From the IMG/VR virus record IMGVR_UViG_3300023055_000005: a DNA stretch of 64,000 bases; one strand, given 5' to 3'. Below the pieces are notes generated by a model. The model made no database searches. It was not told where the DNA came from and saw only the letters and a list, made by a program, of their open reading frames with translations. The DNA comes from a virus. Taxonomy: Duplodnaviria > Caudoviricetes. Both the position numbers and the translations under genes were made by a program. Below are positions 6,116-53,095 of this stretch, piece after piece (position 1 is the first letter of the stretch; each line of letters starts with the position of its first letter).

Positions 6116-6190
6116 CCGCCATTCATAGTATCGGCTAGGGGGTAAGAAATTACCTCCTAGACTACCCCTTAAAAGTCGATTCCAATAACT

Positions 6191-6215
6191 TTCACCTCTA
6201 TATAACTCAGGTGAA
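6191..6215 (+). promoter_or_regulatory. Phage (putative early) promoter copy 2
   Basis: TTCACCTC-TATATA-ACTCAG-GTGAA; resembles the phiKZ early TATATTAC-type promoter as I recall it. Confidence 0.8.
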
Positions 6216-9109: not shown

Positions 9110-9126
9110 AGTCGATTCAAACAAAC

Positions 9127-9151
9127 TTGAGTTCTATATAACTCAGGTGAA
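9127..9151 (+). promoter_or_regulatory. Phage (putative early) promoter copy 3
   Basis: TTGAGTTC-TATATA-ACTCAG-GTGAA; identical to copy 2 over the last 18 nt. Confidence 0.8.
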
Positions 9152-25505: not shown

Positions 25506-25528
25506 CTAAAACCATGATTCAAATAAGT

Positions 25529-25553
25529 TTCACCCCTATATCACCCATGTGAG
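25529..25553 (+). promoter_or_regulatory. Phage (putative early) promoter copy 4
   Basis: TTCACCCC-TATATC-ACCCAT-GTGAG. Confidence 0.8.
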
Positions 25554-44880: not shown

Positions 44881-45018
44881 GTGACACCCGTCGAAGCCTA
44901 CCTCATCAGCCAGATCATCTACGCTGTCATCGTTTGCGTGTTTGTAGTACCCGCAATGATCGGCGCAGGTATTGATGTGTACCGTATCCACAAGACCAAA
45001 GTGAAGGTAAAGAAATGA
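44881..45018 (+). CDS. Small membrane protein (45 aa)
   Basis: GGAG SD, GTG start, one TM segment. Confidence 0.55.
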   Translation: MTPVEAYLISQIIYAVIVCVFVVPAMIGAGIDVYRIHKTKVKVKK

Positions 45019-46211
45019 CGCAGCATTACGTTGGAACCAAGGTCATCCAGGCATACGAGAACGAGAAGGACGGCAAGCCCGGCTTCGCCGTTCAGTACCC
45101 GGATGGCTACACCTCCTGGTCCCCGAAGGAAGTCTTCGAAGAAGCTTACCTTCCGATCGGCGTCATCCCGGCCGGTACGCCGGACTTCGTGCAGCGCATG
45201 ATTGCTGAACGTGTCCAGCTCAACGACCGTAAGAATAAGCTTAACGATTTCTACGTCGAAGCCAAGAAGAACGGCGGTCACCCGGATCTTCAGGGCGACG
45301 AGCTGTCGGACATCGACGATCAGCTTGAACGGATGGTCGAATATCTCCAAGCACTGGATCAGCGCATCCAACGCCACGGCTTCATCTTCCACGACACCGG
45401 CCGTGTGCTCACGGTGCAGCAGGCCCAGGTCGAAAGCTATACCCGGATCAAAGAAATCATCGTCCAGATCATCGCCGCCGCGGAGAAGAAGGGCGAGCCG
45501 CTGGACCTTGCTGCCACGCAGGATATCCCGAAGGCAATCCGCGAGAAAATCTTCCTCGAATTCGACGCGGGCAGTGTAGTTGAATGCTCTTTCGAGAATG
45601 CCTATTGGAATGTGAGGGTGAGGGGGATGCTGCTGTTCAGCCGCTCGGTCCACGAGTACAAGATCCGCCACCTGGAATGCTACCGTAGCACCGTCGACAA
45701 GCGCATCGCCCAGGCTATCCAAAGTGCCTATGCGGAAGTCACCTCGATTGGCAATACCGCCAATGATGTCGTGTTCATGAACTACCTCTCTACGCACTTC
45801 CTCAAGAAGGTCGGGGACATGGGTCAGGTCGCCATCGCCGGCCGCCGCATCGACGACTACTGGAAGTTCATTGTCGATTACACCGATGACGTGCTGCAGG
45901 GAATCTTCCTCTGCTACAATTCGGTCAGATACTCGGCTTTCAGGGTGGAGATGCTGAGTCTGAACTCTCGCCAGTCTCGCTTCGAGCAGGCGCTGGACTC
46001 CTTGCGCACGCTCGTCCCCGACAGTGTCAGGGAAGCAATCCTTACCAAGCTCGATGAAAGCATCTGCCCGGTGGGCGACGTACTTGGGCCGTTGCCAACC
46101 CTTACTATCACCCGCCGCGGCGCGGCTATTGTCTACAAGGATGAAGCCTTGGAGCGTCTGAACCAGATGATCCAGGCGGCCGTCGCCAAGATGCAGGAGG
46201 CCAAGGCATGA
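45015..46211 (+). CDS. Multidomain fusion: YSWSPK-type module, crAss001_48/T4 RIIB.1-like helical hairpin, unknown C-terminal domain
   Basis: YVGTKVIQA..YPDGYTSWSPKEVFEEAY; QRMIAERVQL..KL..QL..M.EYL..L..RI. Confidence 0.7.
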   Translation: MTQHYVGTKVIQAYENEKDGKPGFAVQYPDGYTSWSPKEVFEEAYLPIGVIPAGTPDFVQRMIAERVQLNDRKNKLNDFYVEAKKNGGHPDLQGDELSDIDDQLERMVEYLQALDQRIQRHGFIFHDTGRVLTVQQAQVESYTRIKEIIVQIIAAAEKKGEPLDLAATQDIPKAIREKIFLEFDAGSVVECSFENAYWNVRVRGMLLFSRSVHEYKIRHLECYRSTVDKRIAQAIQSAYAEVTSIGNTANDVVFMNYLSTHFLKKVGDMGQVAIAGRRIDDYWKFIVDYTDDVLQGIFLCYNSVRYSAFRVEMLSLNSRQSRFEQALDSLRTLVPDSVREAILTKLDESICPVGDVLGPLPTLTITRRGAAIVYKDEALERLNQMIQAAVAKMQEAKA

Positions 46212-46936
46212 CCGACTCCTACGGAAACTACGCGCTGCTCGTATCTTTCCCGGATCAGAGCGAGACCTTCACCCTCGGCGTAGAGGCCGGTGTGTTCTGG
46301 CAGCGCCTGTCCATGGGTGAACGTGAGTTTGAGTACTTGGCTCACACCAAGAACCTCGCATGCCTGGAACGGATGGCCGCGTCGATGGATCTCCAGGTCA
46401 AGACCATCGCCAGTGACGATGAGTGGACGACCCTCGGTATCTACCCGAAGGCGGCGGAGAAAGAAAGGCCGCGGCTGATGCTGATCAACGGTGGCATTCA
46501 CGTGAGCACGGAGAAGATGGAGGGCGTGTCTGAAGCACTCGCCAATCATGAACTCCAACGCACATTGGTGCAGGTGCTCGATGGCAAGTACCGTGCCGGT
46601 GAGGTTGTCACTGTCCGCCGCAATCTCGAAGGCATCATCCCGCTGTTCGGCAATATCTTCAGCGCAGACACCACCTTCATCGTCAACACCAACGCCACCT
46701 TCGACGAGCTGCAGGCAGTCATCGAACCGCTGCTCGTGCCCATCGGCAGTAAGCGTTCGCAGGTCTACCTGTCGTACTCGCTGCCGGTTGTCGATGCGTG
46801 CTATGCCAAGTATGTGGTGATCGATCGTCGCCGCATGCCTGGCAGTGAGAGCGATGCCTTCCAGCGTACCGAGGCCTTGATCAAGGGTATTACCAAGATC
46901 GCCAAGGTGCCGCCGGTGTTCATCGTAATGGACTAA
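46208..46936 (+). CDS. Two-domain hypothetical protein
   Basis: ATGA overlap. Confidence 0.7.
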   Translation: MTDSYGNYALLVSFPDQSETFTLGVEAGVFWQRLSMGEREFEYLAHTKNLACLERMAASMDLQVKTIASDDEWTTLGIYPKAAEKERPRLMLINGGIHVSTEKMEGVSEALANHELQRTLVQVLDGKYRAGEVVTVRRNLEGIIPLFGNIFSADTTFIVNTNATFDELQAVIEPLLVPIGSKRSQVYLSYSLPVVDACYAKYVVIDRRRMPGSESDAFQRTEALIKGITKIAKVPPVFIVMD

Positions 46937-46942
46937 GTGAAC

Positions 46943-46981
46943 GGGAGGGGCTTCGGCCCCTCCCTCTATGTCTTTTTTTTT
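46943..46981 (+). terminator. Hairpin (TTCG), TATGTC and T-tract
   Basis: gggaggggc/gcccctccc stem. Confidence 0.85.
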
Positions 46982-47041
46982 GTCTGGTTTTCTGCCCACT
47001 ATATGGGGCGCTTTCGCCCGTCTACGCAGCTAACCGGGATC

Positions 47042-47434
47042 ATGGCAATGTTGAAACACTTCGTACTACTGAAAACTTTCGAGCACGGCTGGCAGGCCAA
47101 GCAGTTTGTTCTGATCCTGCGTCAGCGCCTGACCAGCTCCAAGTCCTTCCTGGGCGCATGGAGCTGGGCACAGACGACGATGACTCTGCCCGACCACCCA
47201 GAGCAATTCGAAGGTCCAGTCATTCTGGAGAACGGCTATCGCGACGTGGCCTGCTATCGCGACAAGTGCCGCAACGGCGAAGGTGACGTGTACACCTATC
47301 CGGCCATGAAGGACTGGATCGAAGGTGGGTTCTGCGGTGAGCCGCCGTCCCCGCCACAAGAGTCCGACGACCAACAGACGTTGGGCGACTTGGGCAACAT
47401 TTCCAAACTTACCAAGTCTGAGGACGCGCCATGA
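47042..47434 (+). CDS. Hypothetical protein
   Basis: Start moved to ATG 47042 or 47048. Confidence 0.6.
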   Translation: MAMLKHFVLLKTFEHGWQAKQFVLILRQRLTSSKSFLGAWSWAQTTMTLPDHPEQFEGPVILENGYRDVACYRDKCRNGEGDVYTYPAMKDWIEGGFCGEPPSPPQESDDQQTLGDLGNISKLTKSEDAP

Positions 47435-47862
47435 GCAGTACCAACAAACGACAGTGCTGCTACCTCGGTGAAGGTCGCTATCTGGTCCGCAGTGCAGAAG
47501 GCTACGAAGAAGCCAAGCAGCAAGCGCTCAAGCAGAGCGGCCTGCGTGGTCCGGATGTCAAGATCAAGTACACCGGCGTCTTCCGCTTCGGCTATCCGGC
47601 GGTGGTCTGGTTCTGGCCGATCTTCCGTGGGAACATGCGTTGGGACATCTACGCCTGCTCCTACCACCTGAACACGTACATGGAGTTCCTCCACAAGCGC
47701 CTGAAGGAGCTGGAGAACCATGACGTGCTGATCGCCGAGCTGGGCTATACCAAGCTGGCCGAGGTGGCCGCCGGTCGTGCAGCCGATGATCCGGAGTTCC
47801 ACGCTGATCTTCTGCGCCTGCTCGAAGAAGGCGCTGCCTCCAACGAAACCAAGGAACCCTGA
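47431..47862 (+). CDS. Hypothetical protein
   Basis: ATGA overlap, GAGG SD. Confidence 0.7.
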   Translation: MSSTNKRQCCYLGEGRYLVRSAEGYEEAKQQALKQSGLRGPDVKIKYTGVFRFGYPAVVWFWPIFRGNMRWDIYACSYHLNTYMEFLHKRLKELENHDVLIAELGYTKLAEVAAGRAADDPEFHADLLRLLEEGAASNETKEP

Positions 47863-48092
47863 TGTTCATCGGTCTGTTCAAAATGGCACTCGGCATCGGC
47901 GGGTTGTTCTTCACCCTGCTGGGCATGTTCGTGTTCTTCAAGGTGTTCATCGCGCCCAAGGTTGCGCCGATGGATACCTCCAACCGGATCAACCACCTGC
48001 GCCTGCTTTGGTTCGTGCTGGCCAGGCCGGAACTGTTCGTCGACACGTTCCCGTGGCTGAAGAACGATGAGCTGAAGAACGTCACCAAGTGA
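47862..48092 (+). CDS. Small membrane protein
   Basis: TGATG coupling; N-terminal TM. Confidence 0.7.
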   Translation: MFIGLFKMALGIGGLFFTLLGMFVFFKVFIAPKVAPMDTSNRINHLRLLWFVLARPELFVDTFPWLKNDELKNVTK

Positions 48093-48130
48093 CATATCGC
48101 CCCTCCCAGACGGGAGGGGCTTTATGCCGA
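48091..48130. terminator. Hairpin with GACATA...TATGCC flanks
   Basis: gcccctccc/gggaggggc stem. Confidence 0.8.
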
Positions 48131-48141
48131 TTCCAATATGT

Positions 48142-48166
48142 TTCAACCCTATATAACTCATGTGAG
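48142..48166 (+). promoter_or_regulatory. Phage (putative early) promoter copy 7
   Basis: TTCAACCC-TATATA-ACTCAT-GTGAG. Confidence 0.8.
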
Positions 48167-48216
48167 GTTCCAATCAAAAGACCTCATTCCCTTCTTAAAC
48201 TCAATGGAGATTCAAC

Positions 48217-48423
48217 ATGAACAAGTCCACCCCGAAGACCAACAACGTCGCCGCTCGTCGTATCGCTCCGGCACGTAAGCCCCTCATCAAGCGCCTTGGT
48301 TCGGCTGTCGTCGATACCGCCAAGGACAAGCAGGTCCAGATTGTTGTCGGTGGTTCGCTCGCAGTTTGCGCGCTGATCATCACCGGCGCAGTCCTGGCTG
48401 ATAAGTACCTGGAACGTAACTAA
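48217..48423 (+). CDS. Tail-anchored membrane microprotein with basic N-terminus
   Basis: GGAG SD; C-terminal IVVGGSLAVCALIITGAVLA. Confidence 0.75.
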   Translation: MNKSTPKTNNVAARRIAPARKPLIKRLGSAVVDTAKDKQVQIVVGGSLAVCALIITGAVLADKYLERN

Positions 48424-48497
48424 CTCCAGACCGCAGCAAACTGAGCCGTCATTTCGGCGGCTCTTTTATTTCCCTTCCAATAATGGAGTAACAAAGA

Positions 48498-49523
48498 ATG
48501 AAAAAGAAAGTAACTGAAACGAAGAACGCCGCAACTACCGTGGACAACACCGAGTACTACGAACTGATTGCCAAGCGCAAGAAGCTCGCCGCTCGTGCCA
48601 AGAAGCTGACGGACGCTGGCAAGCCGGTCCCGACCAAGCTTCGCGACGAAATGGCTGCCCTGAAACGACAGACCAACAAGTCCTCCATCGTCCTCGGCAA
48701 GGGTCTCAAGACCCTGGCTACCAAGCCGAACGATGTGAAGGAAGTCAAGGTGGTTGACATCACCACCACGACCACCATCACCGAACTGGCAAAGGCGCTG
48801 GGCATGCGTCCGAGCGGACTGGTGAGCCGCCTGTTCCGTCATGGGACTACTGCGGTGAGCGGTGACAAGGTGACCACGCTCAAGAGCGCCGTCAAGGTTC
48901 TCAACGAGATCGGCTCGAAGGAAGGCTTCAAGGTCCAGCTCGTCGAATCCACTGCGGTGGACAAGCTCACCGATGCGTTCAGCACTGCGACCAAGAATCG
49001 CCGTGTGCGCAAGAAGCCGCTGACCAAGATCGCCATTTCCCCGCGTATCACCATCGAGCAGCTGGCTGAAAAGCTGGACATCACCAAGAACGCGCTGGTC
49101 AAGCACTACTTCGCCGAGAAGAAGATCGTGTCCACCTCGCAGACCGTTGCGTCGGCAGGTCGCATCCTCGCTCGCAAGATCGCTCACGAGCTGGGCTTCG
49201 AGTTGACCTACACCAAGGTCGGCAAGGTGTCCAAGACGGTCTCCCAGTCCGAAGCGGGTCTCACCATGCGTCAGCTGGAAAACGAGATCTTCAAGGTCGA
49301 CGGTCTGCGCATCGTCTTCCGCGTCGATCAGAACGTTCGCTCGGGGATTGCCAAGTGGGGTCAGCGTATGCCTGACAGCGCCACGATCTCCAGCCTGCAC
49401 GCTCGGCTGAAGCGGCACCACGCGGACTTCAAGGACTGCCAGTTTGTCATCACCGACAAGAACGGCGACGCCTTCACGTCCACCAGCAACCGCAAGCAGA
49501 AGCTCTCGGCTCTGGCTTTCTAA
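48498..49523 (+). CDS. Basic protein with two IF2 N-terminal-domain-like repeats
   Basis: TITELAKALGMRPSGLVSRLF and ITIEQLAEKLDITKNALVKHYF..ARKIAHELG resemble IF2 ITVxELAxK..VIK..M..AE++A+E+G. Confidence 0.7.
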   Translation: MKKKVTETKNAATTVDNTEYYELIAKRKKLAARAKKLTDAGKPVPTKLRDEMAALKRQTNKSSIVLGKGLKTLATKPNDVKEVKVVDITTTTTITELAKALGMRPSGLVSRLFRHGTTAVSGDKVTTLKSAVKVLNEIGSKEGFKVQLVESTAVDKLTDAFSTATKNRRVRKKPLTKIAISPRITIEQLAEKLDITKNALVKHYFAEKKIVSTSQTVASAGRILARKIAHELGFELTYTKVGKVSKTVSQSEAGLTMRQLENEIFKVDGLRIVFRVDQNVRSGIAKWGQRMPDSATISSLHARLKRHHADFKDCQFVITDKNGDAFTSTSNRKQKLSALAF

Positions 49524-49559
49524 GCAGTACCCACCAACCACTGGTATAAGGAGATAGAA

Positions 49560-50000
49560 GTGAACGTTGGTGTTTGTGAGAAGGTTGTCCCTCAGCGTCG
49601 TGAGTTCTACGTGACGCACTCGTTTGAGGGTAACCTCTACTTCAGGAATCTCCACCCGATGAATGTCGAGGAGCCTGTCCTGAAATTGACGTGTGAGATC
49701 CCTACGCTCGGCATGGAACATGCTGATCGGAATGGTCGCATTGACGTCATGAAGTTGTGCATCTTGAAGAAGTTCGAGGCTCAAGGTCTGAACGGTATGG
49801 AACTGGGCGCCCTGTTAGGGTTGCTCAGTCCCCGCTGCATATGCCCTGAGTTACTCGATGAGCTGCCTGCGACTGTGCTGAACCATGTACAGATCGAGGA
49901 TGAACGGCTGATCAAAATCTCCGGTACGCATTGGGGCGAATATCTGGAAGCTAACTACCTGGCGGTAAGTTGGCCCAGTGAAAAGTTCCTCGGCTGCTGA
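49560..50000 (+). CDS. Hypothetical protein, weaker codon bias
   Basis: AAGGAG SD, GTG start. Confidence 0.65.
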   Translation: MNVGVCEKVVPQRREFYVTHSFEGNLYFRNLHPMNVEEPVLKLTCEIPTLGMEHADRNGRIDVMKLCILKKFEAQGLNGMELGALLGLLSPRCICPELLDELPATVLNHVQIEDERLIKISGTHWGEYLEANYLAVSWPSEKFLGC

Positions 50001-50093
50001 GAAAGAGTAGTAACTGGCTGTACTCTGCTGTACCATGTATGGCGGAGGTAACCCCTCCGCCTTTTCTCGCTTAAACCTAATGGAGTTTCAAAT

Positions 50094-50636
50094 ATGTGGG
50101 GCAATTACGTCGGAACGTTGGAAATCAGCCGTGCCAAGAGCACCGCTCATCGCTCGGGTCGCATCATGTTCTTCGATCGCGCTACTGACCTGTTCGCTCA
50201 CGTCCTGTTCGATCTGGACCCGATCAACTACGAAGACCCCAAGGACTACCGCGGTCTGTTCGTGGTGGATGAGATCTTCACCAACATCCTCGATGAAAAC
50301 GAAGCCGACCGCTTCCGCGACATCATCGCGCTGTCGATCCACTTCCTGTTCAACAACAAGGACTTCAAGGATCGGCACCGCATCACTCACACCGAGATCC
50401 TCATCGGCGTTGGCGAGCTGGATGAGAATCCTGTCCACAGCTCGCTGATGCAGAGCACGACCAAGTTCCTGGTCGACGAGCATCACGAGGAAGGTGACAA
50501 TGTCATCACCATCGAGAAGCTGCGCGAGTTCGCTCGCAACGACTCGGTCATGAACAAGCAGATCGGCATGTACACCGCCGGTGAGCGCGAGCCCACCATG
50601 GTGATCGACTGCACGTCGGCATTCGCCACGCTGTAA
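50094..50636 (+). CDS. Hypothetical protein
   Basis: GGAG SD, biased codons. Confidence 0.75.
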   Translation: MWGNYVGTLEISRAKSTAHRSGRIMFFDRATDLFAHVLFDLDPINYEDPKDYRGLFVVDEIFTNILDENEADRFRDIIALSIHFLFNNKDFKDRHRITHTEILIGVGELDENPVHSSLMQSTTKFLVDEHHEEGDNVITIEKLREFARNDSVMNKQIGMYTAGEREPTMVIDCTSAFATL

Positions 50637-50705
50637 CATCCTAGAGGGCAGGACTTCGGTTCTGCCCCCTTTCCTTTCGTAATACCCCCCAATGGAGAAA
50701 TTCGT

Positions 50706-51209
50706 ATGAACAGCAAGACCCCGCGTTACATAGCGGTCCTTGACATGCTGAACATCGGCCGCATGACCAACGCCGACGGTGACCTCATGGTCATCGATAC
50801 CACCACCGCTGAACACGTTTTTCTTTATTTGGCAATTCGTGAAGAAGGAAGTGAAGAAGAGGGGGATTATGGTGTCGAGTTGGAGATAGTCGGCGCACGC
50901 GACAACATTCCCCAGAACCCGGTCGAAGAGGACAACCTGGCAGCTGCTCGGCGACTGGCCAACGGTGCCTACAGCATCCTCTGCAGCGCTCTGGACATCA
51001 TCCGGGAAAATCCAGAAAGCGAAGTCTTCGCCCACCGCGCCCTGGCTAAGGCCTCCGTCAAATACAACTGCGAAGATAGCGAACATCTGACTGAGAAAGT
51101 GCTGTACTCGGTCATGCAATCGAATGATGCCTGTCATGAAAAAGTCGAACTGACCATCCTGACCGACAAGTTGATCAGGCGCACCTTTGATCTGGGTGAT
51201 CGTACCTAA
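50706..51209 (+). CDS. Hypothetical acidic protein
   Basis: GGAG SD. Confidence 0.7.
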   Translation: MNSKTPRYIAVLDMLNIGRMTNADGDLMVIDTTTAEHVFLYLAIREEGSEEEGDYGVELEIVGARDNIPQNPVEEDNLAAARRLANGAYSILCSALDIIRENPESEVFAHRALAKASVKYNCEDSEHLTEKVLYSVMQSNDACHEKVELTILTDKLIRRTFDLGDRT

Positions 51210-51248
51210 GTCCCACACTCGCCCAACAACTACCCAACCGAGGTTCCC

Positions 51249-51503
51249 ATGGCCAGCAAAGCCGTCAAGCGGTTGACCGCAAGGTATACCCGCAAGCGCA
51301 ACTCGTTCCTGCTCTACGCAGCCCTGATGATGATCGTCTGTTTCTCGATGGGACTCATCCTTCCCAACGCCAGTGTGTTCGGCAGTTACAAGTGGGCGGT
51401 ACTGGGAGTGCAGCTGGGATTGTTCTTCTTCGCCGCAGTCGCCGCAGTCAAGAAGTTCTGGCCGGCATACTACGACTACCTCCGATTGCGGAGTGTGGCG
51501 TAA
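51249..51503 (+). CDS. Two-TM membrane protein
   Basis: GAGG SD; two hydrophobic segments. Confidence 0.7.
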   Translation: MASKAVKRLTARYTRKRNSFLLYAALMMIVCFSMGLILPNASVFGSYKWAVLGVQLGLFFFAAVAAVKKFWPAYYDYLRLRSVA

Positions 51504-51529
51504 TTTGCTACACGAGCAGGCCTATAATC

Positions 51530-51810
51530 TGTACAAGTCAGTGTGCACTGCAGCTCCTCCGATAACCCGAATGTAGGCACGGCCATGCGTGCTGATCATC
51601 TATCCCGTTCGTGTACGGGAAAGCTCTTTAGGGGGAGCCATAATCGGAGTCAAAGCGCAGCACATACCCTGCATCAACATCGTTTGTCTGATCGACCTAC
51701 TTGCTCGGGTTGCTAGGATCGCGGAGTTGTTGCCTGACTCTTCTGCTAGGTTGGGGTGGCAGTTTATTCCAAGCATTAGGCCTGCTCCTTCGGGGGCAGG
51801 CTTTATGCCC
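51530..51810 (+). ncRNA. Candidate structured non-coding RNA (multi-helix junction plus pseudoknot) ending in a UUCG terminator
   Basis: About 340-nt gap without an SD-led, codon-biased ORF; about eight complementary segments found by eye; G-U pairs favour the + strand. Confidence 0.6.
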
Positions 51811-51844
51811 TTATGCGCTTTTCGAATACCACAACGGAGTTCCA

Positions 51845-52009
51845 ATGACTGAAGATAAGTTCACCAAGTGTAAGCCGGGTTCCTTCCTCGACAAGATGTA
51901 CCGCGAGAAGTTCGGGCAGGTTTACATTGACTACATTGAAGTGGAAGAGCAGTGCACCTCGCGCTCCTCCACTGGGCCGGAGTTTGAGTTCGAGGATCTC
52001 GACGCATGA
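51845..52009 (+). CDS. Small acidic protein (54 aa)
   Basis: GGAG SD before ATG 51845. Confidence 0.65.
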   Translation: MTEDKFTKCKPGSFLDKMYREKFGQVYIDYIEVEEQCTSRSSTGPEFEFEDLDA

Positions 52010-52539
52010 ACTTCATGCCCCTGCTCTGCAATAAGCTGTGCATCTGCAAGTCCTCGTTCGGCTGGCTCATCATGACGCCGCTGTTCGTCTACATGTCCTC
52101 CTCTTCGGCGATGATGGGTCCGATCGTCTCCGGGTCCACCGCACTCACGATCAACGGCTGGTTGGTCACGTGGAAGTGGAAAGGCAAGCTGGTGTTCATG
52201 TGGTCCTTCACTGAACTGCTCCCCGCGGTTAAGAAGTGGATCCTTGGACCGAATACCAACGAGTTCAAGGAGACCGGGGCGTGGACCTACGCCTACCTGC
52301 CTGATGGCTCGTCGGCGATCGTCAAAGAGGGCTACCTCACCGTCCACAATCGCCGCTGGCGTAAGAGCGTTCCACATGGCCGTCTGTACGAGGTCGTTGG
52401 CTTCCCCGGTTATCTCAAGGCGCCATGCCTTCAAAGCGCCGCAGAAAAGGCCGAAGCATCCTTCAAGGCACTCGAAGAGTTGTCGGGACTGGTCAACGAA
52501 CTGCAAACCGATATCAACAACTCTGCACTGAAAGCGTAA
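52006..52539 (+). CDS. Hypothetical protein
   Basis: ATGA overlap. Confidence 0.7.
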   Translation: MNFMPLLCNKLCICKSSFGWLIMTPLFVYMSSSSAMMGPIVSGSTALTINGWLVTWKWKGKLVFMWSFTELLPAVKKWILGPNTNEFKETGAWTYAYLPDGSSAIVKEGYLTVHNRRWRKSVPHGRLYEVVGFPGYLKAPCLQSAAEKAEASFKALEELSGLVNELQTDINNSALKA

Positions 52540-52588
52540 CACCCTCCTTCGCAGTATCACTAAAACACAACGTATCACGGAGATAGAC

Positions 52589-53095
52589 ATGAGCAACATT
52601 GCACAGCTGACCCAGACCGTTTCCCTCGAAGTCAATGCCTACACCGATCAGGCACGACTCCAGGAGATCGCAGCCAAGCTGCGTTCGATGATGGTCCAGG
52701 ACGGCCAGGATGAAGCAAACCTGACGACCCACGCTTCGTCCGACAACAAGCCGGAATATCCGACGGCTGTGATCAAGACCGAGTTCCGCTGCAAGGGTTT
52801 TCGCAACATGCTGGAGATCGACATCCAGCTCAGCGAAAGCCTGCTGACCAACAACCTGCTGATGGTGGACCACAAACGTCGCCTGCAAGCCTACGCCGCC
52901 GGTAAGGAAGCGCTGTGGGTCATCAACGAGTTGAACAAGACTCTGCTGGATGATCCGGAAAGTTCCAACCCGCAGCTGGACAAGTACATCAACCGCGGCC
53001 AGCGCATCATCCTGCGGAAAGAGTACGACGCTCACGCATTCCACCGCGAACTGGTCAAGCTGCAGGACGAAATCCTCGGCTCCCTCCCCAAGTAA
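52589..53095 (+). CDS. Hypothetical helical protein
   Basis: GGAG SD. Confidence 0.75.
   Translation: MSNIAQLTQTVSLEVNAYTDQARLQEIAAKLRSMMVQDGQDEANLTTHASSDNKPEYPTAVIKTEFRCKGFRNMLEIDIQLSESLLTNNLLMVDHKRRLQAYAAGKEALWVINELNKTLLDDPESSNPQLDKYINRGQRIILRKEYDAHAFHRELVKLQDEILGSLPK

Follow-up and report, generated by a model that had tools for sequence, protein, structure and literature searches.

The window analysed here, a stretch of 64,000 nucleotides (nt) from the IMG/VR virus record IMGVR_UViG_3300023055_000005, carries at 48498..49523 on its plus strand a gene for a modular, very basic protein of 341 amino acids (aa). Searches show that this protein, P0001, consists of a helical hairpin, two modules of the kind found in the N-terminal region of initiation factor 2 (IF2_N, N2 type) together with a basic helix, and a C-terminal domain of the phrog_10601 type, and that it has no GTPase domain. 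A known anchoring module is met here in a new setting, a phage protein that is without the GTPase, is predicted to be dimeric and joins the module to a phrog_10601 domain; the literature that we searched holds no description of a phage-encoded IF2_N protein.

Much less is known about how phages control host translation than about how they control transcription. Nucleus-forming jumbo phages keep transcription and translation physically apart, and how the exported mRNAs gain ribosomes is an open question. The sequence of P0001 points to one defined ribosomal site, helix h16 of the 16S rRNA, which is the docking site of the N2 module of IF2.

A modular, very basic protein without a GTPase domain

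The gene, its ribosome-binding signal and the parts of the protein are as follows (window coordinates, strand, description).

48485..48488 (+): Shine-Dalgarno sequence GGAG, 10 nt ahead of the ATG; kept in Xanthomonas phage Xoo-sp14 and in the related locus L006
48498..49523 (+): coding sequence of P0001, 341 aa, isoelectric point (pI) 10.2; homologues known
48537..48683 (+): basic helical hairpin, residues 14-62, from the AlphaFold model
48747..48941 (+): IF2_N-type module 1, residues 84-148, from profile and structure matches
48954..49022 (+): linker made of a conserved basic helix with its tail, residues 153-175 (AF..AT+.RR.RK), with a model helix at 153-166; pI 11.1
49023..49211 (+): IF2_N-type module 2, residues 176-238, from Pfam IF2_N (18.6 bits), TIGR00487 and the IF2 N2 profile
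49233..49520 (+): conserved C-terminal domain (C-domain), residues 246-341, phrog_10601-like; in all distant homologues, with a predicted homodimer interface

The open reading frame (ORF) at 48498-49523 is a real gene, given its exact coordinates, a G+C content at third codon positions (GC3) of 0.81, as in genuine genes of the window, the GGAG sequence ahead of it and full-length homologues at 50-82% identity. Its product is strongly basic throughout, all domains and all 12 relatives having a pI of 9.9-10.7 (11.1 for the linker segment). The Lys-rich N-terminal helix noticed in a first, sequence-only reading of the window is seen in the model as the helical hairpin of residues 14-62, for which structure searches gave generic matches only. 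The linker motif of residues 153-175 is common to the distant family members P0008, P0012, P0015 and P0016.

The same reading had described two related segments of ~55 aa, and these are confirmed as homologous modules of ~65 aa at residues ~84-148 and ~176-238. BLASTP of residues 80-165 against residues 166-250 found no alignment, so that the repeat is detectable only with profiles; profiles built from the orthologs of both repeats align over 67 columns (hhalign probability 95.9%, E 5.8e-9). With such an E-value at an identity of ~20% between module 1 and module 2, the repeat is real but old. Across the family, 18 repeats from 13 members align end to end to one common pattern, and in both AlphaFold models each repeat of P0001 has three helices enclosed by two strands, a short bridge preceding the third helix, with a predicted local distance difference test score (pLDDT) of 70-86.

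The likeness of these repeats to IF2_N holds up, with Pfam (above its cut-off), TIGR00487, the profile search of the PDB and four structure libraries in concurrence. Over the whole protein, Pfam family PF04760 (IF2_N) gives 29.8 bits, above its gathering cut-off of 25.3, a mark that module 2 passes by itself in the Xoo-sp14 ortholog (28.1 bits). When all 18 family repeats were scanned one by one against Pfam, IF2_N was matched by 15 (best E 3.2e-7) and the next family, HTH_10, by six. Residues 177-249 match positions 5-74 of the NCBIfam model TIGR00487 (IF-2) at E 1.3e-5. Against 177,635 PDB sequences, the best match of the 18-repeat profile is the N2 module of Pseudomonas aeruginosa IF2 (residues 259-320; E 9.2e-6, 28.2 bits), which spans positions 4-70 of the 72 in the profile, while the N1 module of the same IF2 scores -0.9 bits; Escherichia coli IF2 (310-365, N2) and Thermus thermophilus IF2 (6-33) come next, and no DNA-binding protein in that search is better than E 0.17. 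A whole-protein profile searched against PDB sequences gave chance matches only (SPC42 coiled coil, E 0.09).

Structure comparison gave the same ranking. In Foldseek searches of the PDB, ribosome-bound IF2 N2 (7uiu, 7unv) is at the top for two independent models, with a template modelling score (TM) by target of 0.58-0.59 for 7uiu; IF2 N-terminal regions rank first among AFDB clusters, and IF2 occupies 30 of the 30 rows listed for Swiss-Prot (best E 3.8e-6). The Swiss-Prot superposition places residues 91-251 on IF2 residues ~4-183, which takes in both modules and the linker, in the N1-linker-N2 arrangement of the factor, and the three-helix-bundle fold of the modules is superposable on the N2 or N/G1 module of IF2.

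Generic helix-turn-helix (HTH) or MerR-type folds, had they been the better match, would have told against the first reading of the repeats as IF2_N-like, but IF2_N matches better than any HTH or MerR family. The HTH families stay below their curated cut-offs (HTH_10 18.8 against 23.1 bits, HTH_3 18.4 against 23, HTH_24 16.6 against 21.9), and their matches cover 17-30 residues of module 2 only. We regard the modules as IF2_N, of the N2 rather than the N1 type, an assignment that is sound but not overwhelming and that relies on the combined evidence, since single modules are only marginal.

The remainder of IF2 is missing, in agreement with the earlier statement that there is no GTPase domain. 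Neither GTP_EFTU nor MMR_HSR1 of Pfam has a match in the 341-aa protein at E <= 10, and only ~95 aa remain after module 2. The TIGR00487 match covers only the first 74 of 587 positions and reaches 24 bits, against a cut-off of 424. Domain II and the fMet-tRNA-binding C1/C2 domains of IF2 are likewise absent, the chain ending at residue 341 with a C-terminus that matches phrog_10601.

The C-terminal domain, its predicted dimer and the protein family

The C-terminal ~95 aa are the best-conserved part of the family. This region had been taken for a small beta domain, which the model corrects to an alpha/beta rather than a purely beta structure. Phrog_10601 is matched by the C-domains of 10 of 11 family members (best E 1.5e-7; E 2.1e-5 for P0001), and hhalign aligns the domain with gp128 of Erwinia phage Ea35-70 (96 aa) at a probability of 96.7% and E 4.2e-10, with a Foldseek TM of 0.71. 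Further structural matches are hypothetical proteins of 81-115 aa in BFVD, AFDB and Atlas (TM 0.59-0.73); searches with the C-domain profile of PDB sequences and Pfam gave nothing usable.

A homodimer is predicted for the C-terminal domain, paired by way of the conserved RVVFR strand. The interface score ipSAE is 0.85, against 0.48 for the best of three controls, with a partner pLDDT of no less than 85 and 100% agreement of contacts among three runs; the ipSAE mark is reached by 20 of 30 solved homodimers and one of 23 solved monomers, counts that are rough because a custom alignment was used. The predicted interface comprises the invariant RVVFR strand, the hairpin of residues 315-329 and F341, and would thus explain much of the conservation of the domain. 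Such a dimer would carry four IF2_N modules in the working particle. It also fits a tandem duplication in Erwinia phage Stratton, where a protein of 354 aa (L023 1018-2082) has two phrog_10601-type domains in tandem (profile E 2.5e-5) and no IF2_N. No homologue of the phage-nucleus protein chimallin was found in Stratton, so that the phrog_10601-type domain is not limited to nucleus-forming phages.

Other identities considered for the C-domain were set aside. A beta-grasp fold was suggested by Atlas matches of residues 244-341 to ThiS, Dsc3_N, FERM_N and PB1, at TM 0.38-0.46 too weak to be used. A remnant of the IF2 G domain, with S-x4-G-L-T, ahead of the first C-domain helix, as a decayed Walker A motif, was rejected as the motif is absent in gp128 and in the Stratton copies, TIGR00487 stops at position 74 and the C-domain is half the size of a G domain. 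The label 'putative toxin' on a structural match in Serratia phage Yaphecito has an unclear basis and was not used. Within the window no paralogs of the C-domain were found. In a 324-kb IMG/VR phage, a 126-aa ORF two genes downstream of a family member (L007 7290-7670, +; RRSVGAGY...L..RL...) has a faint C-domain likeness that is not significant (hmmsearch E 0.1), and could be due to chance or to a very distant paralogous relation.

The family is small. An exhaustive hidden Markov model search of 1.84 billion representatives gave only seven further proteins at E <= 1e-17, sharing mainly the C-domain; an eighth match, repetitive and at E 6e-4, looks spurious. A word-indexed search with the C-domain profile added two near-copies of P0012 only, and a search of IMG/VR three loci more. 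The family numbers about 13 proteins among the billions searched. At one end of its range of architectures the C-domain stands alone (P0010, 113 aa), and at the other it follows three or so modules (P0007); between them it comes after one module (P0009, P0011) or after one module with a basic helix (P0008, P0012). Neither the family repeat profile nor PF04760 finds an IF2_N-type module in phiKZ, RSF1 or Ea35-70, the C-domain profile finds no match in phiKZ or RSF1, and across the whole phiKZ genome neither the repeat profile nor the C-domain profile matches at E <= 1. With these other jumbo phages giving no match, the fusion of IF2_N and C-domain is limited to phages like Xoo-sp14 and to a small number of uncultured jumbo phages.

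The window belongs to a jumbo phage of Xanthomonas, a ~234-kb relative of Xoo-sp14 of the nucleus-forming (chimallin) type. Xoo-sp14 (232 kb) shares 82% DNA identity with parts of the region, and its hypothetical protein Xoosp14_51 (gp51) is the cultured ortholog of P0001 (51% identity); in other parts of the window, large ORFs have matches in PHROG families of the phiKZ type. Xoo-sp14 has been classed among the chimalliviruses, which are nucleus-forming jumbo phages (bioRxiv 10.1101/2024.03.21.585822); homologues of the phiKZ chimallin gp054 are present in Xoo-sp14 and in both long IMG/VR contigs with relatives of the P0001 gene. The phage is also present in 21 soil runs labelled as metatranscriptomic RNA-Seq (2018-2019), where it forms contigs of whole-genome size (191-234 kb) and flat depth. 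Over window positions 45000-53000, runs X7, X16 and X23 each give single contigs of 191-234 kb at a depth of 124-272, and one contig of 234,185 bp is an apparent complete genome. RNA libraries that contain the whole phage reflect either heavy DNA carry-over or a phage that is very active and transcribed throughout; as these are whole-genome contigs at flat depth, they do not demonstrate transcription of the P0001 gene, and transcript starts or ends are not visible in contigs.

The upstream region and transcription unit

Four further features lie between the end of the preceding gene's unit and the start codon of P0001.

48100..48119 (+): GC-rich hairpin CCCCTCCC-AGAC-GGGAGGGG at the end of the preceding gene's unit, read from the sequence
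48129..48157 (+): promoter-like motif GATTCCAATA-N-CTATATAAC, repeated; also at the orthologous gene pair in Xoo-sp14 and L006
48217..48423 (+): small upstream gene of 68 aa, an ORF that precedes the ortholog in Xoo-sp14 (gene 50) and L006
48443..48473 (+): terminator-like hairpin of 8 pairs with a loop of 5, then a T-run (TTTTATTT), 25 nt before the start codon

Analogous hairpins stand at the place of 48100-48119 in Xoo-sp14 and the IMG/VR relative. The promoter-like motif has four strict copies in the window (6178-6206, 9114-9142, 25516-25544 and 48129-48157, all on the plus strand), against none in 100 shuffles, and its consensus reads GATTC(C/A)AA(T/C)A..TT(C/G)A...CTATAT(A/C)AC, then TCA(G/T)GTGA. 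This repeated element probably marks the promoters of one temporal set of genes in this group of phages. The P0001 gene had been placed second in a unit behind such a promoter; the motif is real (four copies with none expected), but the terminator-like hairpin at 48443-48473 lies between the two genes, and their cotranscription would require read-through. That the gene is expressed early is plausible by analogy with the early operons of phiKZ.

Around the hairpin, a leader block of ~45 nt, AAACTGAGCCGTCATTTCGGCGGCTCTTTTATTTCCCTTCC, is nearly identical in three phages (window 48438-48482, L001 5943-5985, L006 5203-5247), although identity between their flanking proteins is only 50-56%. Conservation of this degree exceeds the needs of a plain terminator, and the block could be a regulatory element acting as RNA or DNA. 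The 68-aa protein, whose gene lies directly upstream of the IF2_N gene in all three Xoo-sp14-like phages, is basic at its N-terminus, carries a single hydrophobic helix at its C-terminus and looks tail-anchored. Elsewhere, the hairpin GGGAGGGGCTTCGGCCCCTCCC occurs at 46943-46964 and in at least five more places of the 234-kb genome, on both strands, and looks like a family of repeated terminator-like elements.

Possible binding partners and comparison with known systems

The N2 module anchors IF2 to helix h16 of the 16S rRNA, on the shoulder of the 30S subunit, through the turn S277-V278-K279, R259 and a tail that lies in the minor groove (PMC9192638). In the profile alignment, the equivalents in module 1 are G102-M103-R104 at the S-V-K turn and K84 at R259. 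Five close orthologs keep the segment LGM-PSGLVSRLFRHG with almost no change, a sign of a specific binding surface. By analogy with IF2 N2, the modules of P0001 may clamp a structured RNA helix, most likely h16 of the host 30S subunit, with the basic flanks of the modules in the groove in the manner of the N2 tail. The protein would then sit on cytoplasmic ribosomes at the normal anchor site of IF2, and would either compete with the IF2 anchor or be held beside the mRNA entry side of the 30S subunit. Either outcome could alter the choice of initiating mRNAs, in a setting where phage transcription, enclosed in the phage nucleus, is uncoupled from translation. Early ribosome-binding proteins have been documented in the chimallivirus phiKZ (PMC10914614).

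On these grounds we tentatively infer that P0001, as a dimer, binds the 30S shoulder and either competes with the IF2 anchor or supplements it, a possible reading and the one that we favour, held short of an even chance. The fuller proposal, of a GTPase-less mimic of the IF2 N-terminus that as a dimer on h16 would displace or reprogramme IF2 anchoring and steer initiation to exported phage mRNAs, is doubtful as it stands. The earlier suggestion, drawn from the sequence, that the protein competes with IF2 or biases initiation in favour of phage mRNAs, is one that we likewise only infer.

Several observations weigh against this reading. Two stretches of ~18 bits together make up the Pfam score of 29.8 bits, each of them below the cut-off of 25.3 alone and covering only positions 2-35 of the 53 in the profile. 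Module 1 alone finds IF2 N2 among PDB sequences at E 0.016 only, and module 2 alone ranks a TetR HTH (E 0.078, 32 positions) ahead of IF2 N2 (E 0.16, 59 positions) and is equally strong on HTH families, with HTH_10 at 18.2 bits. Conservation of the position equivalent to K279 is lost in distant members. While the C-domain is constant, a member may have anything from no module to three, so that the core function of the family may not need IF2_N. Outside IF2, modules of this type occur in small stand-alone proteins and in phage proteins of the KilAC/ANT antirepressor type, and the fold by itself therefore does not imply ribosome binding. The dimer predicted by modelling, with its HTH-like modules, would suit a DNA-binding regulator equally well.

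That P0001 is such a dimeric DNA-binding protein, with HTH-like modules and a dimerising C-domain, acting as a regulator of phage promoters or as a histone-like coat that covers phage DNA non-specifically in the phage nucleus, we consider rather unlikely, though it is the main rival. The HTH-like modules, linker and predicted dimerisation domain of P0001 follow the classic layout of a phage regulator, the minimal members P0009 and P0011 are exactly one module and the C-domain, and the top place of TetR for module 2 is joined by weak matches to HTH_10, HTH_3, HTH_24, LacI, MerR and PHROG 'transcriptional regulator' families. Every one of the HTH families, however, remains under its curated cut-off over short stretches, IF2_N leads the family vote by 15 to 6, the DNA-binding matches of the repeat profile are no better than E 0.17 against 9.2e-6 for IF2 N2, and IF2 is first in all structure libraries. 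The very basic composition suits DNA as much as RNA, but sequence-specific regulators seldom have a pI above 10 in every domain; and the conserved inverted repeat just upstream of the gene, a possible operator, is shaped like an ordinary intrinsic terminator.

The upstream hairpin bears equally on the possibility that P0001 binds RNA other than that of the ribosome, so as to protect, chaperone or autoregulate exported phage transcripts, with its own 5' hairpin as a possible target. N2 reads an RNA helix by shape and minor-groove contacts (PMC9192638), a mode transferable to other hairpins; the composition is extremely basic, GC-rich hairpins recur across the genome, and the 5' leader hairpin is ~95% conserved against 50-56% for the proteins. 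The conserved hairpin is nevertheless more simply explained as the terminator of the upstream gene, and h16 of 16S rRNA is the only documented RNA target of this type of module, which makes this an unlikely account. A decoy of the IF2 N-terminus that binds a host partner of IF2 such as NusA, uncoupling host transcription from translation, is very improbable. The N1 IF2_N module of E. coli IF2 does bind NusA, at KH2-AR1 (PMC12297416), and the phage protein copies the N1-linker-N2 arrangement; yet its repeats are N2-like (28.2 bits against -0.9 for N1 on the same IF2), the IF2 N-terminus and the NusA C-terminus are both unconserved among species (PMC12297416), and chimalliviruses transcribe with phage RNA polymerases (PMC10914614).

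Should P0001 prove to be a mimic of IF2 at h16, it would be the first phage factor known at this site and the first viral mimic of an initiation factor's anchoring module. Mimicry of the anchoring module would be a new principle, acting at a new site, in the takeover of ribosomes by phages, and the protein would be a tool for probing what the poorly understood N-terminal region of IF2 adds to initiation. If it is a DNA binder instead, IF2_N would emerge as a general nucleic-acid-binding unit and phrog_10601 as a dimerisation module of jumbo-phage regulators.

Among known systems, gp014 and the other early proteins of phiKZ that co-sediment with ribosomes (PMC10914614) share with P0001 the setting of a nucleus-forming jumbo phage. 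Gp014, however, attaches to the 50S subunit, close to 5S rRNA, and does not mimic IF2, P0001 has no sequence relation to the phiKZ proteins, and ribosome binding is demonstrated for them and hypothesised for P0001. With dimeric HTH regulators and with KilAC/ANT proteins that have IF2_N-like segments, P0001 has in common a three-helix module with an HTH-like turn and a C-terminal dimerisation domain, predicted in P0001; there are weak ANT, HTH_10 and LacI matches. It differs from these proteins in that the matches are below cut-offs and IF2_N is the best, in the two tandem modules per chain and in its extreme charge. The phrog_10601 proteins, Ea35-70 gp128 and the 354-aa protein of Stratton, are homologous to residues ~255-341 but, unlike P0001, have no IF2_N modules, and no function is assigned to their family.

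The closest counterpart is the N-terminal region of IF2 (PF04760; 7UIU and 7UNV; T. thermophilus N/G1, 4B3X), which likewise has two IF2_N modules and a basic or helical linker. The modules of both proteins share the signature T-I/V-x-E-L-A-x-x-L-G...L-V/I-K-x-L-F-x-x-G and the order of a strand, a three-helix bundle and a strand. At ~20-23% identity, the phage module differs by a 5-residue insertion before helix 3, and the phage protein is without the G domain, domain II and C1/C2. Where IF2 has its GTPase, P0001 has a phage-specific domain that is predicted to dimerise.

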